NCBI GenBank assembly: GCA_008632985.1
Contig: QPGO01000093.1
Location: 186,001 to 250,000, forward strand
DNA from: Psammoneis japonica
Taxonomy: Eukaryota
Direction of reading: 5' to 3'
DNA length: 64,000 bases
In this document: one piece after another, positions 1 to 63,112 of the stretch
Position numbering within the stretch: position 1 is the first letter of the stretch
Layout: every line of letters starts with the position of its first letter
Position numbers and translations under genes: made by a program
Notes under the pieces: generated by a model
What the model was told of the DNA's origin: nothing
Database searches by the model: none
Seen by the model: the letters and a program-made list of their open reading frames with translations, nothing else

Positions 1-2380
1 CAGCTCATGACATTGTCACAATTTGCACTTTCACTCTCATGACTGCCTTGGGATTCATGGGTTTGTGGCTCAACGTTAAATGCGGAGATCTCTTGGTGTC
101 AGTTCGGGGCTGGCGCTGGTGTTGGCTGTGCCACACAGCTGGGGGGCAGCTGCTGGTGGCAACATGGCTGTAGAAAGTGGCCTTTGGTCATGCAGCAGTT
201 AAGGGCATGGCTTGCAGGCCAAGTTTGCCAGTGCATGGGCAGTCATTTGCACAGCTCAAGCTTCAATCAATTTGTTGGTTTTCTTTTGTGCATTCACTGC
301 TGCTGGGGGGGGGGGCATTGTCAGAATTGAGCTCTCAGGTGTGTGCGCAGCTGGTGCATGCTGACATGTGTGATGTCTGTTCTGGGATGGATGCAGAAAA
401 GCAGACCAAGCAAGCAAGAGAATTCAAGAGTGTCTTTGAGAGCATTGTGGCCAAAGGGTGCTGTTGACTTGCACACCCCGATTGAGCCACACCTCTCTCA
501 TGTGGTTGTTTGGTGCCAATTGAAAGATGAGTTCCAGTGCTTTAGGGGGGAACTTGCTGTGAGGAACTGTGGTGACATTTTGCATTTTTCATGTCTCAGT
601 GTGCAAAGCTCATGTGCGCATTTGCACAACTTTGGATTCAATGTGTCTGTGGAGCACAAACACGCTTCACAGATTTCCAAAATTTTCAATGTGAACAAGA
701 GGGACAGCAGTGCCACAAAAGTGGTCTTCTTTTGTTTTGATGTCAATGACAAATGCGCTCATTGCCTGGTGCATGAGCTGCAGAGCTCTCATGCACAGAA
801 CTCTGTGATGGGGGGACAAATGTGTCCAAAACTTTCCCATCTGGAGCCACATCAAAAGAACATTCTCTGGTTGCATGTTGCCTCCCACCCCCCCCACACT
901 GGAGCTGAAGGAGTCATTGCTGCACCTGCTGATCCAGGCACAGCTAGAATGTGTGTGCTCACACTGGAAAAACTGCCAGTGTGGCACACACCTGCAATGA
1001 TGGGTGCTTCAACCAACCAGCTGACAAACCCAACACAGAGTGTCACATGACAAGCACACCATCACTTGGGGCACAAGAATGCCTGCTTGAAATCAAGGTG
1101 CTGGGCAAAGTTGTCATGGAGCCACTAAAATGACAAGCACAAAAAACTCACAGCCTGGATCTAAAACTGCCTCCAAAGAAGACAACAAGACAGCTGTTCA
1201 CTTTTTGGCTGCCCATGTTGAGACATTCATTTGAACAGTCAGCAGCTCTCCTCAGACAGCAAAGTTTCTGAGTCTCCTTGCTCTTTTGCTGTTCTTTTGG
1301 TGACAGCATTGTGCAAGAGCCCACCCAGATGGCGTTGTTGTGTGTGATGGGTTCATCCAGAGAGAATCAACTCAAGCACACCAAAGTTGTCTCCCCTTTC
1401 CCACATTGAAAATAGAGAGATGGAAAAGAGGCAAGGTGTGCCATGTTGCATGATGGCACAAACACTTTGAAAATGGAAAACTGGACAACAAGTTGGCACA
1501 AGAGCCTGGAGAGCCTGCGTGTGCTGAGCAGTGTGCATGCCACCACTGCTGTTCTTGTTGACAAGCAAGAAGGCACCCTCATCTGCCCATGAGAGGGCAA
1601 GCAGCAGATTGCAGAAATGGGAACCTGCAGTGCTGAACTTTCACAACACCGCATGCTTCCAACCTCAGCTGCATGCACAGTTGAAATTTGTGCAGTTGAA
1701 TGCAGAGTTGAAGAGGAGCTTGTGGGGAAAGGAAGGGAACAGCAGAGGGGGGCACAGAACAAGCAGCTGCAGCAGCAGGAGAGCAGAAAGGCTGCAATGT
1801 GCAGGGCATTTGGCACAGAAGAAGCAGGGGGGAGATGAGCCAGTGTGTGAAGAGAGGAGGAGGCAAAGTGAAGGGTGCACATGAAAAGATGGCAAACTGG
1901 GTTGTGGCCAAGTGTTTGAACAGCCCACCAAGAAGGAGAGGTGGGGTGGTGTGTGCTGCCAAAGTGCCAATCACTGGAAAGGCAGCTCCAGGTGAAATCA
2001 GCAAAAGGGAGAGAGGGGCAGATGGCGACATTGGGGCTTGAAGAAAGAACATTGTTCAGAGTTTTGCAGAGGTTAGAGGAGGAGGACCTGGGGGGCTTGG
2101 GCTGGGAGCAGGCAGAGGAGAGTGAAGAGCCAAAGAAAAATTGATGGCAGCCAAAAGAAGCTGGGACAATCAAAGCGATCAATGGCAAAGAGGGAAGAAG
2201 AAGGAAGATGCTGTCGTCATTGTTGAGCAAAGCAACAACAAGGGATCCATCAGCAGAAGATGCAGGAGGTCCAAGAAACTTCAGTCTCGTGCTCGGTTGG
2301 GTGCCTCTCATTCAGTTAAAACAGGAGAGCAGAGGGAGCAGGCAGACAAGGAGGAGGGCGAGCTAAAAGGAGCTTGGGGA
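1..2380. repeat. TpA/CpG-depleted, TpG/CpA-rich degenerate block (probable decayed repeat or mobile DNA, family not identified)
   Basis: 4 TA dinucleotides in the first 600 nt by hand count. ORFs are Cys/His-rich and lack Tyr. Composition returns to normal near 2390. Confidence 0.75.
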
Positions 2381-2666
2381 TGGAACGGTGACGTCGACAA
2401 CGGCCCGCACGGGCTGGCGACCTAAGATCCATTCCGAATTCCATTCCCAGAACCAGATGATGACGTCGCTGTCACTTAAAGGGAAAAGATTGAAACATGC
2501 TTCCGTCTTCTTCGGACCACGTCGTCGGCACTTTCAACCACAAAGCCATGACCACATCAGCCCCAACGTTCGGAAATCTTTCACGACGCCACTGGATGGC
2601 CTCTAGGATTCGGCGTTGCTTTTTCCACCTCGCCGTTCATAATCTCAAGAACGAAAGCATAACGAA

Positions 2667-4043
2667 ATGAAGAGAAATCGGGCTCTGTCACTGAGCTTGC
2701 TCCTCACATGGCCGATGAACATACAATCGGCATTTCTGGCTTCTCAACCAGCACACAGAGTCGAGACAAGGTCTCACATGTCTTCCGTCGTGCAAGACGA
2801 ACAATCTACAAAACCGACAAACGTTGAAAATGATCCAGTTCTAGAAATTGGGAAGTCGTTTGTCCCCACGACATTTAATCCTCATCCGTTCCTGAGAAAC
2901 AACCACCTGCAAACAATCGGAGGGGTATTTTTGCGAAATATACCCGACTGTGCGTACACGACAAAGACTGGCAACTTTCTGAGTGATTGGACCAGTCTTG
3001 CGTCAGTCATAACGTCTGCAATCTCGGGTCAGACAGAGAAAAAGGTTGCGTCCGAATGCACCTATTGGGACGAGCGACAACGAGTGGAGACACCCGACGG
3101 AGATTTCTTTCATGTCGATCACAAGTATCAAACCAAATCATCGTCACGAGGCCTTGTTGTCCTGTTACATGGCTTGGAGTCTAATTCGAACTCCTCTCTT
3201 TCCATTGACATGTCCAAGGCATTTCACAATCTTGGCATGGATGTTGCGTGCATCAACAACCGCGGATGCTCCGGAGAAGACAATATAAAACTGGGCATGT
3301 ACCACGCTGGCTTTACCCAAGATATCAAACAGTTTCTATCCATGCAGACGCAACCGATTTATCTTTCGGGTTTTTCTCTTGGTGCCAATCAAGTGCTCAA
3401 AACACTGGGCGAGCTCGGGTCGGATGCCAGGGAAAAATACAACATTCAAGGCGCAGCTGTCACTGGAGCTCCCTTTGATATGGAACGCAACATCAAGTTT
3501 GTCGATGCACCCGGATTCAATAAAAGAGTATATGCCGGCAATTTTCTCAAAACTATGAAGAAAAAGTGCCACAACAAGCTCGTCCAGCATTGTGACGGCA
3601 ACCCCGACACAACTGTGTTTGACTATAATCGAGTGATGCAGGCCGACACGATTGCAGAAGTCGAGAATGGTTGGCTTGCGCCGGTTTACGGATTCAAGGA
3701 CAATATTGATTACTACAGACAAGTATCGTGTGGGTACTTTTTGAAAGGCATAACCGTACCCACGCTCATTGTGAATGCCAAGGATGACCCCTTCTTCGAT
3801 CCATCCTACTTTCCAGGAGAGGTTGGATGCGACGGTGACGGTGTTGCACCCATCAAAATGATTCGAACAGACTTTGGCGGTCATTTGGGATTTATCTTTC
3901 ACCAGCGAGAGCCAAATGAAGCATCCTTTGGTGCGAGAGTAAATGGAAGTAATGGAGAATCACAGTCATGGACATCGTCTTCCTGGATGCCGAGCGAATT
4001 GGCTCGCTTTGTCGACCATGTCCAAGATTCAATCGAGTCTTAG
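2667..4043 (+). CDS. Alpha/beta-fold hydrolase, YheT/ABHD1-3-like, possibly plastid-targeted
   Basis: NNHLQTI, LLHGLES, NNRGCSG, GFSLGA nucleophile motif, NAKDDPF, GGHLGF. N-terminal signal peptide followed by SAFL. Confidence 0.9.
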   Translation: MKRNRALSLSLLLTWPMNIQSAFLASQPAHRVETRSHMSSVVQDEQSTKPTNVENDPVLEIGKSFVPTTFNPHPFLRNNHLQTIGGVFLRNIPDCAYTTKTGNFLSDWTSLASVITSAISGQTEKKVASECTYWDERQRVETPDGDFFHVDHKYQTKSSSRGLVVLLHGLESNSNSSLSIDMSKAFHNLGMDVACINNRGCSGEDNIKLGMYHAGFTQDIKQFLSMQTQPIYLSGFSLGANQVLKTLGELGSDAREKYNIQGAAVTGAPFDMERNIKFVDAPGFNKRVYAGNFLKTMKKKCHNKLVQHCDGNPDTTVFDYNRVMQADTIAEVENGWLAPVYGFKDNIDYYRQVSCGYFLKGITVPTLIVNAKDDPFFDPSYFPGEVGCDGDGVAPIKMIRTDFGGHLGFIFHQREPNEASFGARVNGSNGESQSWTSSSWMPSELARFVDHVQDSIES

Positions 4044-4202
4044 TCGCACAACCTGTCGCTCTTTTATGACACGACCCTGATATTCAAAATTTAAGGCATA
4101 GATTGACATAGATTCAACATTAATTTAGATTTAACAACACTTTCAACAAGACTGGTCACCTATTCAATCTCCCTGATACAATCAACCTGATACGTAACTA
4201 CC

Positions 4203-5222
4203 TTACACTTCCGGAGGAGGATTCTCCTGGAGCGTCATGGACGCTGTGTCGGCAAGATAATCCTTAAAGCCTTCCGACTTCTTTCCCGTTAGAGTTTCAA
4301 TGTCGTCCGAATAGGCCGATGCGTACTCCTCGACACCGCTCGCCTTGACTTGCTCAATATTGGCAAGATCCTTAATAACCCAGGCCGGAAAGCCACGCTC
4401 CTTGAGTTCATCTTCCAACTCGTGCTTACCGAGTGCCACATGTTCAATGGGCTTGTCGTAAAACTTGGAGAGGAGCTTGCAGACTTCGGCGTCACGAATG
4501 GGCCGTTCGGCCGTGAGCTGGTAGGTCTTGTTCTTGTGCTTCTTCTTGCTCACCAAGACATTGACTGCAGCCCTGGCCACAGAGTTGGGGCTCACGTAGT
4601 TGACGCCCATGGCGTACGAGGCCGTCACATACTTGGCACCTTCTTCTTCACGCATGGCAGCTCCTTGCTGGATCAAGGGAGTAGACATGAGATGCGACGT
4701 GCGCAACAACGTGTAAGTCATGCGCGATGGCATCGCAGGGTGACACAGGTGTTCGTCACAACCGCGATGAAACTGCACATAGGGGACGGTCTTGTTATAG
4801 TCATCACTCTGGTTCACCTCGTAAAAGGACATCTTGACAAAGTGCTCGACGTTGTACTTGCGACAAGCAGAAACAAACTTGTCGAAGGTAGCAGCTGTTT
4901 CCTTCATGCGAGGGAGGGTACAAAAGACAGACTTGACACCGGCAAGCGCCATTTTGTATTCATCCGCGTCGGTCCAATCAAAAGCGATGACCGTGGCGCC
5001 CAACCCTTCGAGCTCTTCAGCGACCGTCTGGCCAATGGAGTTGTCGACGTTGACCTGGCGTTCACCCTTCCAGATGCCGACACGAACTTCCTTATGCCCA
5101 GCTTCAAGCAACCCCTTGGCGACGCGGTGTCCGATCACGGAAGTTCCCGACATGATAAAGCATGTTCCCAAGTCCTCTTCGATCGTGACCCCCAGAGGGT
5201 CGAGTTTCTTCATAAAGGCCAT
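4203..5222 (-). CDS. NmrA-like atypical SDR / NAD(P)-binding protein
   Basis: FIMSGTSVIGHRVAKGL Rossmann-like motif, ALAGVKSVF, VEHFVKMS, NYVSPNSVARAAVNVL, KNKTYQLT. Start placed at MAFMKK. Confidence 0.8.
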   Translation of the reverse strand: MAFMKKLDPLGVTIEEDLGTCFIMSGTSVIGHRVAKGLLEAGHKEVRVGIWKGERQVNVDNSIGQTVAEELEGLGATVIAFDWTDADEYKMALAGVKSVFCTLPRMKETAATFDKFVSACRKYNVEHFVKMSFYEVNQSDDYNKTVPYVQFHRGCDEHLCHPAMPSRMTYTLLRTSHLMSTPLIQQGAAMREEEGAKYVTASYAMGVNYVSPNSVARAAVNVLVSKKKHKNKTYQLTAERPIRDAEVCKLLSKFYDKPIEHVALGKHELEDELKERGFPAWVIKDLANIEQVKASGVEEYASAYSDDIETLTGKKSEGFKDYLADTASMTLQENPPPEV

Positions 5223-7933
5223 GGTTGATGAGGTGTCGTTCCTGGATCTTCTTTTGTGACAACAGCGCAACCACGCAAGCTGGAAAACGAGAAAATCTTT
5301 TCTTCGTTCTAAAATCGTGTACATAGAATTTGTACCAGCAACTCACGTGCACTTGGTTTATAAAGCATGCAATGATGAAGAACAGTATAAAAATTTCAAT
5401 CGCGAGTGAACGTACCGGTAGGGCCTACGTAGCCCTACGGTATCTTTGCTACCGTACAGCATGGTACTGCACGAGCATTCAATCGCGCGAAACAGTCAAT
5501 GACTCAGCCGACTGAACGATTGACATCTGCCTGTGGACATTCGGATAGAGGGCAAGACCGGAGAACCATCGGTGAAAACGAAACAAGTCTCGAGCACACC
5601 GTTAGAGCGCCAAGCACTCCAACTTTCGGCTGAAACCTGGAGCAAAAATGAAAATTGAAGAAAAGTTGTGGGATGGCCGCTCTTGTTGATGTGCTTTTTT
5701 GTTTCCCGAGGGACAGGCAAAAAGACTGCCTTTCTGTGCCAGCCAGTCAGTCAGCCAGCCAGTCAGTCAGACTGTTGCCATCAGGGAGCATTTTGTGCTG
5801 CAGCTCAGATGTGGCAGAGCTGGTGGTTTTCTTGCAGATGGCTTGCCACCAAAAAGGAAGAGATGGGGGTGTCCTCAAAGCACTTGAGATTGACAAAAGC
5901 CCTGCAGCATGCAAAAGAGCAAAAAGCACTTGTCAGAGCAGGCCATCTGGGAAACAAACACTGCCTTTGACAAGTCTTTCATCCATGCCAAGCTTCAGCT
6001 TTTTGTGCCTTTGTTGACCACGCAACCCTGGCAGTTTCTTTGAAAAGCACAGCAGTGGCAACACACACCATTTGAAAATGCCCCTTGGGATCTCTTCAGC
6101 AAAGCAGGTGCGTCATTTCTGAGCAACACGCATCTTGCCAAGTGAGCTGAACACTGGGAAGATGCTGGTGCAGCTTTTTTTTTTCATTTGTGGCTCTGCA
6201 CATTGTGGCATGGGCTCTCATCAAGATGAGCGCCACTCTCCAGAGCTCATGTTTTCAGCAAAATGCTTGGTGTTGCTGATGCACACTCCAGCTCCAGGTG
6301 GGAATTTTTTTGAACATTTGTCCTGCAGAATTCTGCACGTGAGCTCTGCAGTTTGCACACTGGGTGGCAAACACACACATGAATGCTGCAACTCTTCATG
6401 TGCTGAACATTTTGGAAAACTCACAAACACAACACACCGGAGAACACAGAAGCTGCGTGACAAGCGTCAGAAGCTGTTTTCTTGAGTGGGGGTGGCCCAA
6501 CAAAATGGTGCCATAAACTGGCACAAAACAAATGTCTAAAGTTGAGCCACTGGGTGAGAAAAGAAGAGGGTTGTTGACATTGTGAAAGTTTCCATGACAA
6601 ACACATTGCCAGAAAGTGGAGAAAAGCTCTTTCTTGTGGCACACACTGACCCAAGCAGCAAACTGCTTGCTTTTGTTGCGGCACACGCAAGTGTGAAACT
6701 CAGTCAGTTTTTGTTGAAGACAAGGCCCATCCTTGGAAGCAAGGTTCTTCTCCCAGAGTTTGTGCTGATTTTGGATCCTCTTCTTGGCACAACTGCCCTT
6801 TGCTGTGTTGGTTTGGGTTCTTTGCATCCTCTCCAAAAGAAAAAAAACAACCTTGCTCTTGTGCAATTTCATCTCAACCAGTTGTCTCCAGTGTGTGTTG
6901 CTGCGAAGTGGTGCATTGACCACCAGATTGCATGAGCTTCCGCCGCACCCCTGGCGGCACACACTGGAAGCAAGTGTGGGGGTTGGCCAGTGCTGGCATT
7001 GCTGGGCAAAGGTGTGACAGCATGTAAAATCAGGTTTGAGCAAAGCTGGAAGCTGGAGTTTGATCAAAAAATCATTTCCTGGCTGTGCAATTCTTTGTGT
7101 GAGAAACTCTGGTTTGAGTTTTTTTTTGCTCAAGCACTTGCACGACAACCCTCTTTTTCTCACCCAGTGGCTCAGCTGCAGCTGTGGGGGCATGTGCAAA
7201 TTTTGTGTGAAGGTGTCAAAAAGTGCAAGATGTCACAGTTCCTCCCCACTGCAAGCCCTCCCACCTGGGAGAGCTGGAGTTCATGTCTGCTTGACAAGAT
7301 GTCATGAGGCTCACAGCTGATTTGCAATTTGCAAACTTCCACAGAGAAGAGCTTGTGACTTGGTGTCTGGCTTTGCTGCCATGGCCAAAGACAAAGCAGC
7401 AGCTCGCCCTTGCATCTTTGTGGTGTTCAAAGCAAAGTTGTGCTCTTCCCCAGCATCAGATGGAAAGCAGTGTGCTGTTGCAAGCAAAAGAGCCAGTGCT
7501 CATCTTTGAGGTGTTCCAAAGGTGTGCTCACAACATGGTTCATGGGCAAGGCTGTCACAAAAAAATGTCCTGTGAGCCAATCAACAAGGTCAGCACCCCT
7601 TGCATGGCTTTGCACACAGCAGACAGAAGCTGGCAAACCTGGCAGACACCTTCTTGCTTGCAAGCTCTGCCTTGTTGTCCAAAATGGAGAAACAAAAAAA
7701 ATGCATCCACAGAAAGGCAGAAAAAAGCAGCTCTTCATGTTGCTGCTCCTTTTCTTCAGGTGAAATTGTAAAAACTAAAATGCCAGTTTGAAGACATGCC
7801 AAATGTGCAAAATGTGGCAAGTTGTGTGAATGTCATTTCCACAAAAAACTCTGGCAAGCTCTGGAACAGGCCAGGTGCCAATCAAGGGCGGATTGTTGTT
7901 TTGTGGTTGATTTTGTTTAGAGTTCGCAGACAT

Positions 7934-8389
7934 TTAACGCCGCATCCACGGATTCACCAGGCAACACTCGGGCATGGCAAAAAGTGTGCATTTGGTCAAA
8001 ATTGATTGTTGAGTGCAAATGGTGGTGTCTTTGGGGTCCCTTCAGTGAGCCGATCATGCACATTTCTTGTCTGACCATCACAGGTCGTCTTAATGGGGGA
8101 TGTCAAAACGTCGTGCTTCAATGTGTGAATTTTCAATTTCACACAACCTCAACGGCTGAGTGCATCATGCAACGATTGATCCTTGAGACGTGTCAAAGCA
8201 CGACGTTTTGACACCCCCCACAAGACGGACCTGTGGTGGTCAAATGAGAAATGTGCGTGTTCGGCTCACTGAAGGGACCCCAAAGACACCACCATTTGCA
8301 CTCAATGATCGATTTTGACCAAATGCACACTTTTTGCCATGCCCAACTTTTGCCAATTTTGCCTGGTGAATGCGTGGATGCGGTGTTAA
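7934..8389. mobile_element. MITE-like element with ~185 bp inverted arms bounded by TTAA (possibly piggyBac-derived)
   Basis: 7934-8118 is the reverse complement of ~8196-8389 (e.g. GGTGGTGTCTTTGGGGTCCCTTCAGTGAGCCG / CGGCTCACTGAAGGGACCCCAAAGACACCACC). TTAA lies at both outer ends. Confidence 0.6.
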
Positions 8390-10119
8390 AAATGACCCGG
8401 ATTTGTTGCACTGACAATGCGCGCATTTGCCAACAAAAAATTCAGTGACAGGCCCAACTTTGTCTGTTTGCAAGACAACACAGAATGCACGTGAGATGAT
8501 TGCGACCATGCACAATGTGCAGCTTGTTGACTGCAAATTTGTCCACAGCAGGTCAAACGCCAATTGCCAGCATTTTCTGGAAAGTTGTGGCTCATCCACC
8601 ATGAACAGTCTAATTTTGGGGGAAAATGGCGGTTTGTTGCATGTGACAACTGCGGCAAACATGACAATTGGCATTTGAAGGTTGACATCTGCAGCTCACT
8701 TAGAGGTCCAACAGCCCTGATGGGGGCTGGGCACACTCACATGTGTCTGGGGGGTGCTCAGAGGCATCGCAAAATGACGCGGGCGAAGTGCGGGAAAATT
8801 CGAAAATCATGATCTGTTTTGAAAAAATGGTGCAAAACAATGACCCAGCCTTAAAAAAAGTCTGGTTCCAGATCCAGGTGATGCACACATGCGCTGTTTG
8901 TCAACTGGCTCATGTTGCTTTTTTGCAAACTCCTCTTCCTTCAACTTTGGTGCTTTGAAAAATTGCGGGGAGTGAGCAGCACACACAAGAAATTCCAACT
9001 TTGGCATTTTCAAAAATTGCAAGGTGAGCACACACAAGAAATTCTTTTTTGCCACTTGGGAAAAACCAGCCAAAGCCACACTTGTGGTTTTGAATTGGCG
9101 CGCAGCAAGGCCAAATTTGTCCAGCCATTTTGCGGTGGGCCATGGCTGCAGCTGTGCTTTTCAACAGGTGACTTCCCCCAAACAAAGCTGTGCACAGATT
9201 GTTGGCTGGCTGGTCTGGGAGTGCATTGCACCATCTGTCCTCCATCCACACATGACTCCACATTCCAGCCAGCAGCACCATTTGCTCCTCATTGCACACT
9301 TGGCTGGAAGTCTTCAGCTCAAACATCCATGGACAACAGCTGAGAGAGTGGCAACCAAGAGGTTGGCAGCAAACCAGCCCTCTTCATCCAGGAAAAGAAA
9401 AGGCAGGAGTGGAGTGATCAGACAGAAGGCAGTCTTGACTGCTGAGTCTGAGTGAGTTGGGAGAGTGACCTTGTCTGGGTTGTCTGCACAGCCCACATTC
9501 TTGGTGCTGCTGTTCCAGGTTGAGGTGTCAATTTCCATCATTTTGAAGTTCTCTGGGTCTGTGAACCCACTCCAACCAGGATGGCATGGAACATTTCCAC
9601 CTGGCTGTTGTTGGAGCCTCTTGTGCTGCTGCCAACCACGTGGTCATGGAGCAAGAAAGCTGCATTTCCATGGTCACTTGGCATGCTGTGCTGAGGAATG
9701 CCATGTCTTGTTCCAAATGCATTGACTGGATTGAGCCCACAATGGACTTGTGCAGGATGGCTTGCAGGGAACCCAGCTTGTGACCCACGCTGCTGCTCAA
9801 TGTGGGCAGTTTGCAAAGAAGTTGTTCCAGCCACATCTGGAAAATGTTGTGGCTCTTGTTCAGAGTTCATCTGTGCTGAACAAGAGCCCCCTGGGTTCTC
9901 AACAAGTGCTTGTTGACATTGAACAAAGCAAACCTGACAATTGTTTTTGCACTCCAAGTGGGAAAACACACTCAATCTGCAGGTCTCATTGTTTGTTTGA
10001 TCTTGATGAGATTGCAGCCACAGCGGTTCTGACATGATTTGGTTTGTGTCCACAATTGAACAAACATGCAAAGCAGGAAACAACAGCTGACAAAACTTGC
10101 AACTTGCACTTGTTTGTTC

Positions 10120-13100
10120 TTGACAAGGGTGCAACTGCTTTCTGACATTGCTCATTTCTGACAATGACAACGTTCACTCATCTCATTGAGATGCACATTG
10201 GCTGTGTGCTGCTTGCAATGTGATTTGTGCTGGCTGTGTTTTGTCATTTCTGCAGTGAACATGTTTTTGCCTCCTGTTTCCTGCTCTTCCCTCCTTGACT
10301 TTGTCCTGTCTCCTGCCAGTGCTCCCACGCCACAGTCACTCTCTGTCTTCACATGATGGTGTGATGTGCATTGTCCATTGCAACTGCTCTTTTGCTCACC
10401 ACAACCATGTCATTTGTTCCATGTCATGACCTTGTCTCTTTTGCTCATCATGCCAGTTTGCCAAAGCTTTGCTTGCAAAGAAGAGAAAAGAGCTTGCAAC
10501 AGATCCGAGCATTGTGTGTGTTTTGTTTTGAATGGGCTTGGCTTGGTGCAAATGACATTTCTGCTCACCTTTGTGTGCAACCTTGTCTCTTTCATTTTTC
10601 ATGCTGGCTTGCCAAAGCATTGCATGCAAAAAAGAGAAAAGAGTGCACAACAGATGAGAGCATTGTGTGTGTTTTGTTTTGAGTGTGCCTTGCGCAAATG
10701 CTGCTTCTGCTCACCTTTGAGTGGCCCCTGCAGGGCTGTTTTCCCTTCTGGCTTCCCTTGCATGTCAACATGTCCAAGTGGAAATGGGCAAAAGCACCAG
10801 TTGTTTGCATTGTTGCCCAAGCTCCATGCACTTGCCAACTCAGTTGCTGCCTCTCTCTCACCTTGCACCCCACATTGTCCTTCTCCTCCCCTGCCTCTGC
10901 TCTTCTGTTTCCTTCCCTCACTGCTGTCATTGTCGCGATGATGGATGAGCCCTGTGATTTGTGTTTTGTGTCTTGTTGGGCAATGATGATTTGTGTTTTT
11001 GCACCAATGTTGAGCCTGTCTGCCTGGTGATTCCTGTCAGCATTGCTTTTTAAGTGACAATTTTGTTTTGAAATTCCACACTCACACTTGGTTTTGCTGG
11101 TTTGAATGATTTAAAATGCTTGAATGAACCATCCAGTCATTGAGGTTTTGCGCATGTCTCTGCAGTTGGTCAATTTCTCAATTTTTGTTGTGTCAATGTG
11201 TTCTTGTTAAGATGGAAATTTTCACAGTCTTGCTGCCACACACCATCCAACTTCAATGCTCCGGGACTTCAATCTCCACAATCTGCTTGATGCTCTCACA
11301 ACCACATTTTCTTTTTGGTGTGTTGCAACAATGCCACCAAAAAAACATGTGAGCCATCACCATGGAGGTGGTGGTGGCCATCCTTGTGCTGCCAACTGCT
11401 CCAATTCTGACAGCGCTCTTGGCCATGGCGATGCAGGTGGGCTGGCAGGAGATCTCAAGCTGAGCCTCAGCCACAAGAGCACAGCAGGAGGAGCCCTCAG
11501 AGAAACCAAGGCTCTGCCAATGGAGCTGCTGCAGCAATGGCTGACAACACAGCAACCACTGCCACTGCTGCTGCCTCCATCAACAATGAAGCCAACTGCC
11601 TGCCACACCAGTGCAGCTGATGACCCCGCTCTCTGGGGCCATTCCACCTGAAGATCTCGAATTTCTCATGCATTGGCACAAAATTCCCGTGGTTGTTGTT
11701 GCATCCCCTGGCACCCAACAGAGTCTCCCACAGCCATCTCAAGACAACTGAGCACTTGTGCTGTCACACAGATGGCTCCATGGTCTCTGCACAGGTGTGT
11801 TGACTGGGCCAAAGATCCCCCAGCCAAGTCAAAAAGAAAAGGGGCCACATTGACACCACAAGACAAGGCCTTTGCTCCCCAACCAAGGTTGTTGTTGGCT
11901 CTCCTGGGACACAATGGAATCACCAAAGGCCAGAAACAGATGTCTGGGCACTTGTGCTGTCACACAGAAAGCTCCCTTGCCCATGCAGGTGGGGTGGCTG
12001 GGCCACCAAAGCAAGCCAATCACATCAGAAAGAAAAGGGGCTGCACTGACCTGAGACAAGGCTTTTCCATTGTTGTTGCCTCCTCCCAGACACAACAGAG
12101 TCTCTTGTGCCTGTCCCCAGAAAACTTGGTGCTTGCACTGTCACATGGATGGCTCCCTTGTCTTTCTTGCAGATTGAGCCACCAAAAGCCATCCCAAGAC
12201 AATGGAGTGCTTGCACTGTCACACAGATGGTTCCCTTGTCTTTGCAGGTTGGCTGGTGTCTCCACACTTTGTTCAGCTGGGCACCTTCTTGTGTGGAGGA
12301 ATCCTGCAAGGAGCTGCTGCTTCTGCCCAAGACAGGGCTTGCAGCTTCCAAAATCAAGAGTGCAAACACACCACAGTTGGGCCAAGAACCCACTCAACAA
12401 ATGCAGGCTGAGTGCATTCTTTGGGGTCCATGTCATGATGCAGGTGGCAGCAACTCAAACCAATGTGCACTGCTGGCAATGATGATGATCTGGCTTGGCA
12501 TTTGGCAAATGTTTGCTGGAACATGGGTGCACTGCCACCACATGCTCCACTTCAGTTTCTTGAGTGGCCTTGGCCTGTGCGCCATTTGTGCTTGTTGTTC
12601 TTGCTTCCCAACCATCTGTTGGACAGCACAAGTTCTCAGCTGTCTTGGGATGGGCACAAGAGACTCCATTGGGTCCCTGGGGAGGCAAGAACAACAAGCG
12701 TGAATGGCGCACAGGCCAAGGCCACTCAAGAAACTGAAGTGGAGCATGTGGTGGCAGTGCACCCATGTTCCAGCAAACATTTGCCAAATGCCAAGCCAGA
12801 TCATCATCATTGCCAGCAGTGCACATTGGTTTGAGTTGCTGCCACCTGCATCATGACATGGACCCCAAAGAATGCACTCAGCCTGCATTTGTTGAGTGGG
12901 TTCTTGGCCCAACTGTGGTGTCTTTGCACTCTTGACTTTGGAAGCTGCAAGCCTTGTCTTGGACAGCAGCAGCAGCCCCTTGCAGGATTCCTCCACACAA
13001 GAAGATGCCCAGCTGAACAAAGTGTGGAGGCACTGACCAACCTGCAAAGACAAGGGAACCATCTGTGTGACAGCGCAAGCACTCCATTGTCTTGGGATGG

Positions 13101-14985
13101 CTTTTGGTGGCTCAACCTGCAAGAAAGACAAGGGAGCCATCTGTGTGACAGCACAAGTGCCAAGTTTTCTGGGGACAGGCACAAGAGACTCTGTTGGGTT
13201 CGGGAGGAGGCAACAACAATGGAGAAGCCTTGTCTTGGGTTGATGCAGCCCTTTTTCTTTCTGATGTCATGATTGGCTTGCTTTGGCGGCCCAGCCACCC
13301 CACAAGCAGAGGCAAGGGAGCTTTCTGTGTGTGACAGCACAAGTGCCCAGGCATCTTTTGCTGGCCTTGAGTGACTCCGTTGTGTCCCAGAAGAGCCAAC
13401 AACAACCTTGGTTGGGGAGCAAAGGCCTTGTCAATGTGGCCCCTTTTCTTTTTGACTTGACTGGGGGCTTCTTTGGCCCAGCCAACACACATGTGCAGAG
13501 ACCATGGAGCCATCTGTGTGACAGCGCAAGCAACCAGTTGTCTTGGGATGGCTGTGGGAGACTCCATTGGGTGCCAGGGCATGCAACAACAATCACAGGA
13601 ATTTTGTGCCAGCACATGAGAAATTCATGATTTTTGGCTCCAATGGCTGGAGAGTGGTGCGGGCCCACATTGGCATGGTGAGCAGCAGCTTTGTCATTGT
13701 GGAGGCAGCAGCAGTGCCAACAGTTGCCGGGTTGGGACCATTAGCCAGTGCTGCAGCAGCTGTGGCAGCACAGCCTTGGTTTCTCTGAGAGGGCTCCTCC
13801 TGCTGTGCTCTTGTGGCTGAGATTGAGCTTGAGATTTTCCAGCTCCACCTGCACAGCAAGACTGTGAAAATTTGCATCTTAACAAGAACACATCAACATG
13901 ACAAAAAATGAGAAATTGACCGACTGCCGACACACAAGCAAAAGCTCAATGATTGGATGATCCATCAAGTCATTTCAAATCATTCAAACCTTCAAAACCA
14001 AATGTGAGCATGGAATTTTAAAACAAAATTGTCACTTAAAAAGCGATGCTGAGAGGAATCACCAGGCAGACAGGCTCAACATTGCTGCAAAAACGCAAAC
14101 CATCATTTCCTCACAAGGCACAAAACACAAAACACAAGGCTCGTCAAACATCATGACAATGACATCAGCAGTGAGGGAAGGCAACAACAGAAGAAGAGCA
14201 CCAGGGGGAGGAGGACAGTGCAGAACACAAGGCAAGAGAGAGACATGAACTGAGTTGGTGAGTGCACAGAGCTTGGGCAACAATGGAAGTGACTTGTGCT
14301 TTTGCCAATCTTTCCACTCAGACATGATGTTGACAACATGCCAGGGGAGCCAGAAGGGAAGGCAGCCCTGCAGGGGCCACTCAAAGGTGAACAGAAACAG
14401 CGTTTGCACCAAGCACATTCAAAACAATGCAAACGCAATGCTCTCATCTGCTGCATGCTCTTTTCTCTTCTTTGCAGGCGATGCTTTGGCAAACTGGTGT
14501 GAAGCACAAAAGAGACATGGTCACATGCAAAGGTGAGCACAAGTGCTGTTTTTGCCAAGCCAAGCCCATTCAAAATAAAGCACACGCAATGCTCTGAACT
14601 GTTGTGAGCTCTTTTCTCTTCTTTGCGGGCAAAGCTTTGGCAATCTGGCATGACAAGCAAAAGAGACAAGGTCATGACATGGAACAAATGACAGGATTGT
14701 GCATGGTGACCGAGAGCGGCTACAAGGGGCAGCACAATGAGCGAAACATCATGCCGCCACAGCGGCGTGGGAGAGCTGGCAGGAGACAGGACAAAGCCAA
14801 GGAGGGAGGAGCAGGAAACTGGAAGCAAAAACATGTTCACTGCAGAAATGACAAAACACAGCCAGCAAAATCACATTGCAAGCAACACACAACCAGCGCA
14901 CAAGCATCTTAATGAGATGAATGAATTTCGTCATTGTCAGAAATGAGTGATGTCACAAAGCAGCCACAGCTGCACCCTTGTTGAG
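10120..14985. repeat. ~4.9 kb imperfect palindrome (foldback-like), arms ~2.3-2.5 kb, spacer ~12610-12680
   Basis: Mirror ORFs on opposite strands (12463-12834+ and 12455-12826- share their N- and C-termini, 11673+ vs 12807-, 10683+ vs 14059-). 10120-10275 matches the reverse complement of ~14820-14985. Confidence 0.92.
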
Positions 14986-15397
14986 AAGTTTCATTGACAA
15001 CCATTTCCAACTTGGAAGGTCACATTAATTGTGAACGTGAGCTGAATCATTTCAAAATGATTGTGGCCACAATCTTGCCAAGATTGAACACAGAATTAGA
15101 GCCATTTTCATCAAGCATCAAATCCCGCTTGGAGTGTTGAAATGACTGTTAAAATTGCTTCGCACATGATTGACAAGCAGCTGTTAAGAACACAGGATTC
15201 TCAACAAGCAAGTGCAAGTTCTGGGCTGAACAAGAGCCACAACGTTTTCCAGATGTGCCACACAGATGGTTCCCTCATCTTTGCAGGTTGGTTGGCTGGG
15301 CACCAAACCCAGTCATGTCAGAAAGACATGGTGCTGCATTGACACAAGACAAGGCCTTTGCTTCCCAGCCATTGTTGTTGTTGTTGTTGTTGTGCAT

Positions 15398-15839
15398 CAT
15401 GCATGCAGACAAAAGGTTGTTTTTGTCACGCCCTTTGTGACATTTAAAGGCTGCAACACGTCGCCATGACACATTGGCTCTTGTTGGCAGCTGTGTGCTG
15501 CACTCCTCCCCATGCATCACGCGTCCATGCGGCTCTTTGCTGATGTGTGCTGACACTGCACGGTTTTGGCGGAACAGTGTGGGTGCGCACGAAGGAACAC
15601 ACAGAACTGCACAGAGTTTTGCGTGCTCGACAGTGATCAACGTTGCTGCAGACAACTCCCACTCAGGGTTTCAAACCCCTGGCCTCCTGCCTGATGGTTG
15701 CGATGAACCACTCCGCTGTGAATTCACAACGCAGCATGCATGCAGACAAAAGGTTGTTTTTGTCATGCCTTTTGTGACATTTAAAGGCTGCAACACGTCG
15801 CCGTGATGCGTTGGCTCTCATCAGCAGCTGTGTGCTGCA
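15398..15839 (+). repeat. Two ~105 bp direct repeats (15398-15501, 15735-15839)
   Basis: GCATGCAGACAAAAGGTTGTTTTTGTCA...GACATTTAAAGGCTGCAACACGTCGCC...GCAGCTGTGTGCTGCA occurs twice. Confidence 0.85.
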
Positions 15840-15977
15840 GTTGTTGTCAAACACCCAATGAGGACAGAGTGAATTGCAACAGAGGCACGCCACTGTTGTT
15901 GTTGTTGGATGTTGGATCAAAGGATGAGTTGCACAGTGTCCAGCAGGAAAAAGGACAAATGCAGCAGAGAAACAGAG

Positions 15978-16185
15978 CAAAACAAAGGCAGAGAGCTGAC
16001 AAATGGAAGAAAAGGGAACAAATGAAGCTGTTCTTGAGAAGTTTGAAATGAGGACAAAATGAGCCACACAGGCAACTCGTCAAACAAAGGCAGAGATCTG
16101 ACAAATGGAGGGAAAGGGAACAAATGATGAAGCTGTTCTTAACAGGTTTAAAATGAGGACAAAATGAGCTGTGCAGGTGACCTGC
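15978..16185 (+). repeat. Tandem ~105 bp repeat, with a partial third copy at ~17393-17440
   Basis: AAACAAAGGCAGAGA-CTGACAAATGGA...GAAGCTGTTCTT...AAATGAGGACAAAATGAGC is repeated. Confidence 0.85.
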
Positions 16186-18601
16186 CATGATGCTTTTGGG
16201 CCACATCCACCTGACCACAGCTGTGGTTTTTGACAAAAATGCTCGTGACCCATGAAATCAATTTTTCTTCTTTCCAAACAAACACAGGCATGCTGCACAG
16301 CGCGAATTGACGCTGGGGTCAGTTGTGATGGTGTGGCAACATTTGGCACCAAGAAGTGAGAGAAACACATTGAGAGCATGCCAAAGCCTTGCTGTGATCA
16401 CAAGGTGCAGGTCCCAAAGAAAGGTGTCTTTGCTCAATGCCTTTGATCATCATCTGCATCCCACATGACATCAAATGCTTTGAAGGTCAAAAGTGAAGTG
16501 CGCTGTGCAGGTGCCCATGACTTGGACAATGCACTCGACAAAGATGGCATGGAAAGGCGCAAGCTGTTTCTTTGGCAGCGCTTTCCTTGTTAAAATAAAA
16601 ACAAGCATGGCAGCCCTTGCTTGTCATGATCATTTGCAACAATCAAATTGACTCAATGTTCATGTTGTCAAATCATCCAAAAAATTTGATCAATGGCTCT
16701 CAAACGCCTCCCTCCTTCGTGACCAAATGAGGAGATCCTGGGCAGTTGTCAGGTGTCAAAAATCCACACAAGTTCCTGAGGAGCCATGAGCAGTTGGACC
16801 TTGGCTCCTGTGAATCTGCGAGCTCCAACCAAATTGATTGGCAGCACAGCTCAAATTGTTCACTTTGTCTGCAAAGAGGTGTTTTCAAGCAGTCGACGCT
16901 TCTAAAACTGGGGCTGAGCTGCAGAAAGTGCTGCCAGCAACAGGCAAATGACAACAGCTGGCTGGAGCCCTTCTGTCAGACACCCATTTTTGTCATTTTG
17001 CATGCATGGAATGATGTGCACTTTGTCAACAATGTGGGTTGAACACCCCACAACAGTCCAGGAAGCACCCGCCACAGAGAAGGGTGCTGAGTGTGAGCAA
17101 CGGCAAGAGTCAACAAGCACAGTCAGCGCCACTTTTAACAACAAAAGTTGATTTGATCCAGGGCTTGGTGAGTGCACAGGCAGTTCTCTCTGCTGGGCTC
17201 CAAGCACTGGAAATCATTGCTGTGGTGATGAGAGCAGCTTTGTCAAAAAGCAATTTGACAGAGTGGCGGCACAAGCCAGCGCTTTCAACAGCTGGCTGTG
17301 ACTGGGAGCTGCACACCACGACTGCAAGGAGATGCAACATGCCATGACAGATTGAATTGGCAAACTCTGGCATGCAGAGAAAACACTCGTGTGAGCCACA
17401 CAGGCAACTCAAACAAAGGCAGAGATCTGACAAATGAAAAAAAAAGCAAGCGAAGCTGGCTCAAAATGTTGGCAAAACAAGCCACACAGGCAACTTAAAA
17501 TGAGCAAAAAAGATTTGATCATTTGTGACTTGAAAACCATCGAGAAACAAAATCAATGTCCATGTAAATTGAAGATCTGTGGAGACAATCAGCGCAAATG
17601 TGCAAACCCCAATTGTTGACAAGCGACACTCTGGTCAAGCACGGAAACATGTCACGTTGCAGACACATCATTGTGGCCAGTGGTGGTGCAGCAGACAGGC
17701 TGCTGTGTTTTAAAAACTAAAACAACTCTTGAATTGCAACACATGACGGGGATCGACACAGCGTCATCAACAACGTCCAACGTTGCGTTGTTGAGAAATC
17801 AGTGTTGACTTTGGCGCAACCGCACCTGAAAGTAGTACATGCATGCTGCACGTAGACAGTAAGATAAGAAAACACACATCCGTTGTTCGTCCATCTGTCC
17901 TATTTTCGCGCGCAGGACAATAAATGTGTGAAATGACTGTCCAACGAGTCGTTCGTGTGTCGTATTGTCTGAAATGTGTCATTTTCATTAACACTTTTTA
18001 AAAACATTTAACAAGAATTTATTTATGAGAAATGACTGCAAAACGAGAAACTTTTGTGTCCTAGCTTTTCAGACGAGAGAAGATTGCAATACGACCGACG
18101 ATGATGGATTCCTACCAATCACACCGCACCTTTGTGCGATGCTTAGTCCCGCCATGCAAACAATTAACAATGATAACCCCTCGATTTGATCTCTACCGTT
18201 TTCTGCAATGGATAAATGATCGAAGAATCATCCTGTCAAGAACCTACAAAATGAAAAGCACGAGCGAGAGACAACAACTACTACTACAAGACCAATTATT
18301 GGGAACGGTAAGCTGAAGTTCTTCATTGGATCTTTATGATGAAATACTGTCATGGTAGTGCCCAGAGCAGTGTATTGGATATGGATACTGAATGGCGACG
18401 GACGCTGTCGAGCTAATGCATCCTCTTGTACTATCCCAACAGATTCCTCGTTCGTCTCACTTATTTCGCTCAATTTTGCACAGACTGATTTCAAGAACAA
18501 GTAAAACACCAGCATCCTGACTTTGGGCTGACGACAAGCACAGCAATAATAACAAGAAAAACTGACTGGCGACAATACGAGGCACCAAGAGTACAACAAG
18601 G

Positions 18602-21600
18602 ATGAATCTCCTTTTCGGAACATCCTTTCTATTTCTCAACCTACTTGTCTCAGAAACGACAAGTGCCATTCGTAATTTGAAACCCTCTGAGGACACCAGC
18701 GATCCCCACAGCAAGAAAAAGCCGTTCTCTACGGTGAGTTTTCATCTACGATAGCTTTATACAACAGTTGCGTTGAATTCGTCGCCACTCATCGGTCTCC
18801 GCTTTTGATTGTCAGCATGTGGTTCCGTACGAAGACGCAGACACTATGGAGGAAGATCAGGACCCTTCGGTCGGAGCACGACGTGCCAGTATTTCGAAGG
18901 GAATTGTGTCAAGGACGCAGTTGCCGGCCCTGAATCGGAATCCACCCCACAGAGTGACTATGCAAGTGGAAGGAAACTACGCGTATCTCGGCATTTATGG
19001 ATCCAACAAAGTGCTGATCTACGACATCTCGGGTCAGCATGCGGCCAATTATATTGCGTCAGTCGACACGTGCTTTGGGAGGAACATTCATGACCTGTGG
19101 GTTTCTGGCACGCACTTGTGGACATCTCACCGATTTGGTGGAATCACAATGATTGACATTTCTGATCCCACAAATCCAGTGACCCCGCCAAAATGCTTTT
19201 CGGAAACATACAACCACAAGGGTCTAATCTCAGAGGGAAATTACCTCTTCTACTCCGGGTATTATCTCTCAATCTACCAGATAACGGGTAATTCTTTGCG
19301 TCTGGTTTCACGAAGCTCTCGCATTCCTTCCGACGGCTGGGAGTTGGTTGTGAACGGAAACTATGCATACGTGGCATCCGAAAATGCTCTTGGTGCTCCC
19401 GTCCACATATACGATATATCTAACAAGGCGAAAGCTCCTTCTCTGGTCAGAACTTTTAGTTCAGCAAGAGGAAAGTATCCTCCACTTGAAATGATTGTCT
19501 CCCGCGATCAAAAGAGACTTTATGCATTGGAAAGGAATACAACGGGGTATGGGGAAGGATTCGATATCTACGACATCGACGGTGCAAACGCTGCCAATCC
19601 TCAACGCCTTGGCAGTGTCACTAGCCAACCGCTTGCGTTTCATATTGCACTTGATGACGAGAAAATTATTCTTTACGTCCAAAACCACTGGACGAGTGCA
19701 AAAATCAGTGCCTATGATGTGCAAGATGCCACCTCGCCGAGATTGATAGAGTCATACGACCTCCCACAGACCACCTGGGATGCTGGAAGAGGCCGCATAG
19801 GATACCAAAATGGCGACTTGTGGTACTCTAACGGATATGTCTACACAGTGAACGGAAATGATCTTGTCGTTCTCCAAGCTCTCGGAACTGGAACAAAGAA
19901 GATCAAGGTCTCACTCGAAAAGGCAAGTGGAAAGAAGCTTGATATCTCTGAACTCGGGCCGCCCGGCCAGTCCATCGGCGACATTGAAGAGATTGAAATC
20001 AATGTGGCCCGTGGAGGACCTTTCAAGAGGATCAAAAAGTTGCCCGGAAGTCGCAGTACGAGCACCTACTGGGTAGGCGAAGGTAAAAAGGGTGAGGCGA
20101 TGAACCTCGTGCGCACCAAGGGCCGAAAGGGACTCCATGATGTCCTGGTTGGCTCCTTTGTCGACCCTCAGGATCACGTGGTGCACCAGATTAGGCAAGA
20201 CGCAGATGGTGATACTATAATGGTCTCCACGCCGACTGCGTACTTTCCTCCCGAGACGTGTATTGCCGTGGGTTCCAGTAGAGCTCTTCTGCCAGACATG
20301 GAAAGGCTCCGGGGCGCTGAAGCTCTCGATCGCCAGCTCTCATATACTCCGATCATTCGTGTGCTTGTAACTTGGACACAGGCAGCCGAATGCAAGGCTT
20401 CGTCCCTGCCAATAGACTGCATTGTCACTGATGCTACCCACACAACAATGGAGGGTTTGGCGAAGCTGGCCATCGAGGAAACAAACACTGCCTTTGATAC
20501 GTCCTTTGTCGACGCCGAGCTTGAACTTGCCTTTGCCTACCGTGATCCGGACAATTACGTCGAGTATGGTGGTGATAATACATATGTAAACGCCCTTCGG
20601 GATCTCACTGAAGAAACGGATACATATTTGAATGATGCGCATGCCAAGCGCCGTGAATATGGAGCAGACGCAGTTGTTCTTTTGATTCATGACTGGACAT
20701 CTTGTGGGCGTGCCCATGTTCAACATAACGCCCCCATTCCGAAGTTTATGTTTTCAGTGACCTTTTGGTTTTGTTCGACAGGATATTACTCTTTTGGTCA
20801 TGAGCTTGGTAAGTACACCGTTCCCGACAAAAAGGCAGTCCTTTCTATTACTAACATCTTTCATCTTTGCTTTGTGTGGATATATCAGCACACAACACGG
20901 TAAGAGCTTTGAACTTGCTGATATCTTGCACCAATTTACTTTAGCATTCACTATTCACTTGCTCATTTGTCTCTGAAGGGGTGTCGGCACGATCGCGGAA
21001 CCGAGAACGAATGCGATGTGGAAGAGTTTCCTAATTACAACTACGGGTACCGTGACAAGGGAGGCGAGTTCCGATCAATCATGGCGTATGAGTGCACCAC
21101 AACTGAATGCGATAGAAACCCAAGCAATAGTTGTGGCAGGGTTCAAAGGTTTTCTCATCCTGGAGACTACATCGTCGGGGGAGTGAATCGCGGACCTATC
21201 GGCGATGCGCACAATGACTGCGCTCGCCGACTCAATGACGTGGCTAGAGCCGTCTCCAACTTTTATGGCACCAAAAGGCTGATCTCGGTAAATGGATCCC
21301 TCTATGTGAAGGAGCTTACCGCACCTTCTCCAAATGTGGGGGGTCATGCTGGTATACATTACGAAACCTGGATGCCCATAAACGAACATTTCGCTCTCAT
21401 CGACAACCACCTTGCAGGCATTAAAAAATCCTGGGTGCTATGCGGCGATAGCGGGGTGCGTGCCAAACTTGTTGTCGACTTTTTTTTAGTCACGCCGAAT
21501 CTCCTCCAAGGCAACAGCTACTATCGTTTGTACAAGGGAAGTTCATGCGGCACCAACGAAGTACTAGTCTCAGAGAGCAAATCAAGGAGAGGTATTTATA

Positions 21601-45890: not shown

Positions 45891-46194
45891 TTCATTGTTG
45901 GCATTGGTGGATCTTTGCTGATGGGACTTGACGACGACACACCGGATCACTTTTCTAGCACCGGCAGGACTCGCACTGAACTCTTGTCCCTACAGTGCTG
46001 CTTACGTTGGGGACGCGGGCCGACGCGACTACGATCAAGTGGCTTCAAAATGGTTCAATCACCCCGTGAAGTGTAGTTGCTATTGAAAACAAAGTTTAGA
46101 GACTAGACAGACACACTAACTCCAGCAGAAAGCAGATTTTCCTTACTATGTAACAGGACAGCACTATACCACCACAACCGCGCTCTTGGTAACT

Positions 46195-54389: not shown

Positions 54390-54900
54390 TGCCAGCCAAC
54401 CTGAGAACAGCAAGCTGAGGAGTTTTTGGTTCTCTGGTGGATCTCAGGTGACACTGCAACAACCATGGTTGAGCAGTGCAAGGCCTGTTTGTGTGGTTGT
54501 GGCCCCCGCATCACCTTGTCCCCACACTGGCAGAGCTGACCTCCAAACTCAACAGCAGAGGCCACATGGTGGTGCCAGCCAACCCAACAGCCACAAGCTG
54601 AGGACACTGGTGGCAGTGCCTGGCAAACCTGCAAGGTTGATCTTCTTGTGGCGTTGTGACCCCATGTCACCTTGTTCCCAACAGCAACAAAAGCAAGCTT
54701 CCAAACTCCACAGTGAAAGGACTCCTGTGATGGATGACAGCACCAATGAACTTGACAAAAGCAAGCTGAGGACACTGGTGGTGTCTGGGAAACCCCAGGT
54801 GAGACCTTTGAAAACTGTGGCCAAGCATTGCAAGGTTGATCTTGTGGCATTGTGGCCCCTTGTCACCTTGTCCCCAACAGCAGCAGACTTGAATTTTCAA
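54390..54900 (+). repeat. Three diverged ~170-185 bp tandem units
   Basis: CAAGCTGAGGA at ~54411, 54594 and 54762. TCACCTTGT(C/T)CC at ~54511, 54667 and 54863. Confidence 0.7.
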
Positions 54901-57236: not shown

Positions 57237-57480
57237 TGCTTTCCAGCATCTGGAACTGCTTTGGAGGCTGCCTCTGATCATCTGCATCACTTTTGCAGTG
57301 ACTGATGTTGCCCCCCTCTCTGGAGTGCATTTGTTGCACAAGCAGAAAGTGTGGCTTGCTGTTTGGTGCTTTCCAGCATCTGGAAATGCCTCAGAGGCTG
57401 CCTCTGTTCATCCGCATCACTTTTGCAGCAACTGACATTGCCCCCCTCTCTGGAGTGCATTTGTCGCACAAACAGGAGTG
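57237..57480 (+). repeat. Tandem duplication, ~130 bp period
   Basis: TGCTTTCCAGCATCTGGAA...CATCACTTTTGCAG...TTGCCCCCCTCTCTGGAGTGCATTTGT occurs twice. Confidence 0.9.
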
Positions 57481-62731: not shown

Positions 62732-63112
62732 ATTTTGGTGGAAATTGTCAGAGACGGATGCAGGTTTGGATTTAGAAGACAATGGCAACTGCAGAAAACT
62801 TCCCGCTCTCTCCATCTGGAGGTGAGGTCTTGGGGGCCCATGTGGCACAGACAGGAGTGCTTGTTCCTGTCGCAGTGTGTGTTGTTGGCTGAGAAAGTGT
62901 GCTGGTGACATTCTCAGTTGTCGTTCATTGTTTTCGCTCGCATTCTCTTTGTTGTGTTTGATTGCTTAATTTGCGCCCACCCTTCCATCGGATCCATCTT
63001 GCGGCTTGCACTGCAAACCCCAGCAGTGTTCCGGGGGTGGCAAACACAGATTGGTGGGACTCTTCCACGTCATGAGCAGTGGACTCATTCACACTAAAGA
63101 CGTGTTCCAGCT

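Follow-up and report, generated by a model that had tools for sequence, protein, structure and literature searches.

Hypermutation of the dinucleotide TpA has been described, as far as our searches show, in a single preprint, which concerns the rhizarian Bigelowiella natans. As its main text reports, 231 of the 302 mutations recorded in mutation-accumulation lines fell in two integrated viral regions, where almost every change was A→G or T→C and every one lay on TpA (Mettrop et al., 10.64898/2026.01.13.699255). The same text puts the rate at approximately 6e-7 per site per generation, a roughly 1,000-fold hypermutation that was seen in only some lines, identifies the targets as integrated giant-virus and virophage DNA, reports that TpA-poor windows rich in CpA and TpG cluster in the genome, and proposes an ADAT2 homologue as a candidate enzyme; a flanking-base rule, CpG and diatoms are absent from it (10.64898/2026.01.13.699255). 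Here we examine a comparable footprint in 64,000 nucleotides deposited as Psammoneis japonica (positions 186,001 to 250,000 of contig QPGO01000093.1, assembly GCA_008632985.1), referred to below as the window and numbered from its first letter, in which discrete blocks have lost nearly all of their TpA. The explanation that we favour, with moderate confidence, is a region-targeted, DNA-level hypermutation of TpA to TpG or CpA like that seen in B. natans, directed here at repeats and dead genes, together with CpG decay on the same DNA.

Dinucleotide profiles along the window fall into two states with sharp borders. A two-state segmentation, whose input included TA density and never the context of a TA, and which therefore carries no bias into the context results, divides the window into depleted (D) blocks totalling 26,638 bp and normal (N) blocks totalling 37,362 bp (Table 1). 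The D blocks hold 69 TA, 306 CG and 6,019 TG or CA dinucleotides, against 1,433, 2,182 and 5,352, respectively, in the N blocks. The TA frequency in D is 0.26% (69/26,638), with an observed-to-expected ratio (o/e) of 0.04 for TpA and of 1.82 for CpA/TpG, while GC content is equal in D and N at 0.48-0.50. When scaled to length, the deficits in D amount to 952.7 TA and 1,249.7 CG, together 2,202.4, and the excess of TG and CA to 2,203.2. This match argues for conversion rather than composition, and the D blocks accordingly have the appearance of N-type sequence after a one-for-one replacement of TA and CG by TG or CA. In the largest D block TG and CA each occur 1,367 times, and TTGY is about as frequent as RCAA in every D block, which shows that the TpA process hits both strands equally; the equality at block scale further argues for a process at the level of DNA and not of a sense transcript. 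Single-strand deamination was rejected on this same equality of TG and CA at block scale, and on GC and AT skews that lack the predicted co-variation in D blocks.

The footprint resembles that of B. natans in that TpA→TpG/CpA transitions are confined to discrete, non-host-like regions and genes are spared. However, to judge from the main text of the preprint, rates were measured directly there, whereas the window offers a footprint only; the affected DNA there consists of single-copy viral insertions at 3.3% TpA, whereas here repeats and pseudogenes stand at 0.26%; and the changes there are almost exclusively A:T→G:C, whereas here 1,250 CpG sites have also been lost in the same blocks (10.64898/2026.01.13.699255). 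The host there is a rhizarian, whereas here it is a stramenopile. A partial likeness may lie in the ADAT2/TadA enzymes, as amphioxus BjADAT2 is reported, in the part of the source drawn on here, to deaminate both C (TCG preferred) and A (GAA, in E. coli) in DNA, and TCG is the most depleted CpG context in the window (PMC10354150). Repeat-induced point mutation (RIP) of ascomycetes, with a TCG-type variant in basidiomycetes, is likewise a regional, repeat-associated and near-saturating transition of a dinucleotide that leaves genes untouched and destroys coding capacity. However, RIP turns CpA into TpA, which raises TA and lowers GC, whereas here TA is erased, TG and CA are made and GC is unchanged; fungal RIP was rejected on the TpA and CpA/TpG ratios given above and on a GC content in D blocks that is that of genes. 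The CpG decay of methylated repeats turns CG into TG or CA in silent repeats, as is seen here with 80% of CG gone. However, such decay leaves TA alone, whereas in the window the CG loss is TCG-biased and the TA loss in places runs ahead of it. APOBEC3 and ADAR also provide context-specific, deaminase-type hypermutation against selfish nucleic acids, although their substrates are single-stranded cDNA or double-stranded RNA, their action is strand-specific, and their contexts are TC or CC for APOBEC3 and a 3' G for ADAR. Full-text literature searches found no report of a TA-erasing pattern in diatoms.

The 69 TAs left in D stand against approximately 1,022 expected from N density, and 54 of them have the context YTAR, compared with 226 of 1,432 in N (Fisher p 2e-28). 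Within the D parts of 1-16200, the region to which the original prediction referred, YTAR accounts for 32 of 39 (TTAA 20, TTAG 6, CTAA 5, CTAG 1), with one TAC and no TAT, which bears out its observations that the remaining TAs are mainly YTAR and that TAT and TAC are almost absent; the TA positions that it listed agree to within 1 nt. With NTAN contexts pooled into ten strand-symmetric classes, the D survivors depart from the N-block proportions (chi2 272), from the mononucleotide composition of D (chi2 192), from a Markov expectation based on flank dinucleotides (chi2 104), and from a back-mutation null built on xTGy and xCAy contexts (chi2 206). The observation thus stands after depleted and genic blocks are compared, as had been proposed, and survivors are not proportional to base composition.

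Survival differs widely among the classes. Relative to N density, TTAA is essentially undepleted in D (30 vs 35.6 expected), TTAG/CTAA is kept at approximately 26% (22 vs 84), ATAA/TTAT and GTAA/TTAC are kept at approximately 4%, CTAG is 95% lost (2 vs 41, its two of 69 survivors amounting to no enrichment), and RTAY is 99.7% lost (1 vs 312). An additive model, in which each strand adds a loss rate set by one flanking base, fits all ten classes (deviance 2.1, 6 df, degrees of freedom), with fitted per-strand loss rates of 0.08 for r(TAA), 1.35 for r(TAG), 3.05 for r(TAC) and 3.16 for r(TAT). Uniform TA loss is rejected against this model (likelihood-ratio test, LRT, 180), as is a two-rate purine/pyrimidine model against the four-rate model (LRT 40.6, p 1.5e-9). 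TAAA is spared beyond other TAA contexts (TAAB; LRT 15, p 1e-4); 47 of the 69 survivors have A as the +2 base after TA, and 30 have T at -2. Loss follows the order TAT ~ TAC >> TAG >> TAA according to the base 3' of the adenine, with TAAA the most protected. The TAs that survive would be those for which the context is poor on both strands (TTAA), or poor on one strand and middling on the other (TTAG/CTAA). The RTA/TAY target of the original prediction is accordingly correct insofar as RTAY has all but vanished and the products fit TAY→TGY, but its purine/pyrimidine rule does not hold. Similarly, YTAR describes the spared class as far as TTAA and TTAG/CTAA are concerned, both being enriched, but not CTAG, with TAG intermediate and TAA refractory.

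Because survival reflects only the two strand rates added together, TAY→TGY and its mirror, RTA→RTG, are indistinguishable by it, and the direction of change was therefore sought in the products. TTGY/RCAA, which would be the products of TTAY/RTAA under TAY→TGY, rise from 24.4/kb in N to 34-47/kb in each of the five D blocks tested, whereas RTGA/TCAY, the products under the mirror assignment, rise from 18.6/kb to only 22-25.5/kb, which falls short of what RTA→RTG needs from TA alone. A 16-context product fit, made under three assumptions as to the direction of CpG change, left a sum of squared errors of 53-72 thousand for TAY→TGY vs 144-229 thousand for the mirror, and the product counts led us to reject the mirror assignment. 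In their make-up the products speak for TAY→TGY, or RTA→RCA as seen on the other strand. The base that changes within RTA is, on these counts, the T, and the A→G change that had been claimed within RTA is not borne out.

Copies of the same sequence provide a further view of the conversion. The arms of an inverted duplication differ by 24 discordant TG<->CA steps, where 2,000 permutations gave 2.8 on average and never more than 8; such an outcome would be expected if unstable TA or CG had been resolved independently in each copy. A young insertion resembling a miniature inverted-repeat transposable element (MITE), lying in a segment (63093-63536) with 37 TAs, could be aligned at one end with an old copy, in which all four TAs of the young copy are now TG or CA (CCAG, GCAG, CTGC, GCAG) and four of the five CGs have likewise become TG or CA. 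Among these changes, GTAG→GCAG, which occurs twice, and CTAC→CTGC fit TAY→TGY, as does a paralogue pair with TTAT against TTGT; the site-level evidence on direction is nonetheless thin and mixed, as discussed below. Transition-tolerant alignment across all D blocks found no convincing further old copies of the MITE-like element, with scores within the shuffled range. Separately, a 65-bp depleted stretch (5937-6001) matches part of the LVIVD-repeat gene (20464-20528) at 80% identity and constitutes a gene fragment within a D block; among the differences between the two are TA→CA, CG→TG/CA at three sites and a single TG<->CA flip.

The same D blocks have lost 80% of the expected CG (o/e 0.20 vs 1.01 in N). 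The loss depends on context and is heaviest at TCG, where 0.13 of the expected number remains, and lightest at GCG, with 0.28 (chi2 43). Four TA-poor sub-blocks that keep their CG (3,056 bp, the 61348-63092 stretch included) hold 13 TA and 120 CG, and TA and CG losses are therefore at least partly separable. CpG loss may be a second process beside TpA conversion, and most of it probably came about via cytosine methylation of the same silenced DNA.

A Pfam search of 155 open reading frames (ORFs) from depleted DNA (24 + 131) returned one match above the curated cut-off, to an ADP-ribosyltransferase (ART) pseudogene, and among these 155 neither viral Pfam families nor a reverse transcriptase remnant were found; sub-threshold hits to DUF6726, HTH_upst_double_PIN and AMOP were disregarded as weak. 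Two frameshifts split the pseudogene into three frame segments, and a TAG at 62316 lies in frame. A total of 42 ART homologues were found. A homologue search by indexed words with the ART fragment, restricted to longer proteins, gave no match. In comparison with 12 homologues, two near-invariant Tyr are His (CAC) and one Tyr is kept, and the near-invariant Arg of ALRSG is also His (CAC), which fits CGC→CAC. The original prediction had cited the two tyrosine changes, ggc TAC→CAC and gtt TAC→CAC, together with a TAC→TGC at a KCPE site, as A→G in RTA; the ART changes are instead T→C in CTA and TTA contexts, a misfit unless the preceding codon also changed, and the examples, which had been assigned to 1-16200, actually lie at ~62.3-62.4 kb and 44.6 kb. 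The ART stretch has a TA o/e of ~0.1 yet a CG o/e of 0.7-0.8, with the domain still detectable (E 8e-7), and TA loss can therefore near completion while CpG loss and protein decay are still modest. That TA loss outruns both may be taken as an indirect sign, and the only one here, of an elevated rate. Depleted DNA also contains 76 stop-to-stop frames of at least 120 aa, overlapping and on both strands, and no tested long open frame matched Pfam besides the ART fragment; such false ORFs arise on both strands because TAA and TAG stops have been lost. Gene callers would thus over-predict in depleted blocks, while tyrosine codons there drift to His or Cys, so that homology searches fail.

The depleted blocks consist of repeats, pseudogenes and old copies of transposons, and genes are spared. 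The depth data that bear on repetition derive from contigs of one public sample at a likeness of at least 80%, which may be the assembly's own source, and summed contig depth does not equal copy number; among the runs listed as carrying this DNA none is of RNA. On much of 6.6-17.4 kb, 3,048 contig pieces pile up to a summed depth of 640 to ~35,000, compared with ~60 over genes, a pile-up that points to repeat families. By far the most look-alike contigs fall on 15001-16200, where the summed depth reaches ~35,000, and two 109-bp copies, 90% identical, lie at 15394-15502 and 15731-15839. Many contigs join ~12176-12256 straight to 15303, so that other copies exist without the intervening 3-kb segment. 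Sample contigs with a k-mer depth of ~60 match depleted DNA with 0-5 differences and span the borders between blocks and genes, from which it follows that the blocks are not chimeric, and one contig matches 1-2123 exactly at the k-mer depth of genes. In total, 1,228 places differ between the window and the aligned sample contigs. Metagenome matches to a 20-mer from the most repeated stretch were dismissed as chance, as all six contigs were TA-rich and alike over 20-21 nt only. Five of these came from one sample and carry one unrelated repeat of at least 160 nt; the window 21-mer at 15438-15458 is shared with it, probably by chance.

Table 1. Blocks, copies and coding remnants located in the window (positions in nt; o/e, observed-to-expected ratio).
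Feature	Position	Strand	Basis and remarks
D block	1-2282		Segmentation; 9 TA, 15 CG, 510 TG+CA
Normal genic block, internal control within 1-16200	2283-5630		Alpha/beta hydrolase and NmrA-like genes; 108 TA, 206 CG
D block, largest	5631-17706		Segmentation; 36 TA, 154 CG, 2,734 TG+CA
MITE-like element end, old converted copy	6287-6352	-	Alignment with young copy
Inverted duplication, arm 1	10117-11235	+	81% identical to arm 2
Inverted duplication, arm 2	13854-14987	-	81% identical to arm 1
D block	44348-45929		Segmentation; 4 TA, 13 CG; includes KCPE site
KCPE site	44624-44635	-	Within LPLH...LL..(Y/C)PE-like repeat; no Pfam family above threshold
D block	51919-61347		Segmentation; 16 TA, 81 CG, 2,150 TG+CA
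TA-depleted, CG-retaining stretch	61348-63092		TA o/e ~0.1, CG o/e 0.7-0.8
ART pseudogene	62100-62740	+	Pfam PF01129, E 8e-7, domain 62248-62655
D block	62288-63092		Segmentation
Young MITE-like insertion, 398 bp	63098-63495		TA-rich, GC 0.42; 26-nt terminal inverted repeats, 88% complementary
D block at window end	63537-64000		Segmentation; 0 TA, 16 CG

Taken as a whole, the favoured explanation proposes that a DNA-level, region-targeted transition process would turn the TpA of depleted blocks into TpG or CpA, working on both strands at a rate set by the base 3' of the adenine, and that CpG decay to TpG or CpA would act on the same DNA. That an enzyme rather than drift is at work, as the original prediction had it, is made plausible by the targeted TpA mutator measured in B. 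natans, and for the window we infer as much: a dedicated enzyme would be responsible, and an adenine deaminase acting at 5'-T-A-Y-3', as proposed for B. natans, would by analogy be the leading candidate. It is possible, though doubtful, that a single ADAT2/TadA-like deaminase with a 5'-T rule hits both T-A-Y and T-C-G in repeated or foreign DNA, as a "reverse RIP" defence common to stramenopile and rhizarian algae. If so, TA and CG would be erased together to saturation, and surviving elements would be TA-free or would hold their TAs as TTAA. Of a similarly tentative standing is an account with the same footprint and targeting but with thymine or repair chemistry, in which oxidation or hypermodification of the T in R-T-A (5-hydroxymethyluracil, base-J-like) leads to mispairing with G, or misrepair by a glycosylase fixes T→C. 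Thymine hydroxylases prefer some TpA sites, the rule can equally be written RTA→RCA, and sequence cannot tell A→G from T→C on the opposite strand, survival depending only on the summed rates of the strands. However, the only experimental precedent, that of B. natans, is ascribed by its authors in the main text to a putative adenine deamination (10.64898/2026.01.13.699255). An explanation with no dedicated mutator is unlikely. It would invoke a slow regional mutation bias, built up over a long time in chromatin that is silent, late-replicating or methylated, with context arising from DNA structure (flexible TpA, rigid A-tracts), and is consistent with a protection that reaches into A/T tracts (TAAA above TAAB, and T at -2 in 30/69) and with CpG decay in the same blocks, an ordinary mark of old methylated DNA. 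However, such a bias would have to remove ~90% of TA from stretches that have lost only 20-30% of their CG and in which a protein domain can still be recognised, and 99.7% of RTAY while the duplicated arms are still 81% identical; in B. natans, furthermore, the signature is reported to arise at 6e-7 per site per generation and to be on or off between lines (10.64898/2026.01.13.699255).

It is highly unlikely that most of the TAs now present have newly arisen or are under selection, or that the blocks were TA-poor before they spread. The ATAA at 14576, facing ACAA in three paralogues, suggests a new C→T, and TAAA views lie above the model baseline (rate -0.35); however, survivor contexts do not track their xTGy and xCAy precursors, as the chi2 of 206 indicates, and a TA-poor origin is at odds with the exact mass balance, with TG<->CA flips between copies at nine times chance, and with an old MITE-like copy that carries TG or CA at the TA sites of the young copy. 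RNA-level A-to-I editing of repeat transcripts by an ADAR- or ADAT-like enzyme, followed by reverse transcription into the genome, would accommodate the 5' T, as a 5' U/T beside the edited A is described in the preprint's main text as typical of RNA adenosine deaminases (10.64898/2026.01.13.699255). Such a route is nevertheless very improbable, as both strands are equally converted in every block, non-retroelement DNA is affected (the MITE-like copy and the ART pseudogene), and the 155 depleted-DNA ORFs contain no reverse transcriptase remnant. ADARs, moreover, favour a 3' G, which is opposite to the lesser effect on TAG than on TAY, and ADAR-type editing with retro-copying was rejected on this lesser effect on TAG than on TAC or TAT and on the equality of products on both strands. 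Hardly credible is a sequencing or assembly artefact, such as miscalls at modified bases: nothing specific speaks for it, beyond the matching reads all coming from one sample that is maybe the assembly source, whereas contigs of depth ~60 match with 0-5 differences across block/gene borders and the pattern is coherent in paralogues, in the pseudogene and in the old transposon copy.

Several observations do, however, weigh against region-targeted TpA hypermutation with the TAY→TGY rule. The evidence here is a footprint throughout, and not an enzyme, a modification or a rate. The ancestral make-up of the D blocks is proxied by genic blocks, the TAY→TGY product model falls short of a perfect fit (correlation 0.65), and the shifts in AT and GC dinucleotides exceed its predictions. 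At single sites, the "gtt CAC" His codon of the ART pseudogene and a paralogue pair with TTAG against TCAG both contradict TAY→TGY, and the paralogues at 14576 imply that some survivors may be new arrivals. With regard to targeting, 1-1800, 7201-7800 and 9001-9600 are depleted yet near single-copy depth, with few look-alikes, and the TA-rich MITE-like element at 63098-63495 is unconverted though surrounded by depleted DNA, so that the process either depends on more than position or has not acted recently at that site. Finally, the adenine context reported for BjADAT2, in the part of the source drawn on here, is GAA and not TAY (PMC10354150). As regards the AT and GC dinucleotides themselves, ApT is lower by 302 and GpC higher by 414 in D relative to genic DNA, where TA/CG conversion predicts less; the cause may be that the baselines differ or that context acts in some further way.

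The genic remainder of the window is intron-poor and encodes alpha/beta hydrolase, NmrA-like, LVIVD-repeat, amino-acid permease, bestrophin, DHH/DHHA2 and HA-domain proteins. The best named relatives of the amino-acid permease are from diatoms (46-50% identity) and a bolidophyte (47%), and the window may for this reason be read as part of the nuclear genome of a diatom-like ochrophyte, to which the databases searched contain no close sequenced relative. At 36770-37370 on the minus strand, a normal genic block contains tandem repeats (period ~84 bp, 68-78% identical), which are unrelated to the depletion.

The data suggest that the same kind of process as in B. natans operates in a diatom-like stramenopile, where it is nearly complete on repeats, pseudogenes and old transposon copies. 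What is new here is a second lineage, the near-saturation of the conversion, a quantitative flanking rule, and a co-located, TCG-biased CpG loss. The flanking rule is directly testable on the published mutations and narrows the search for the enzyme.

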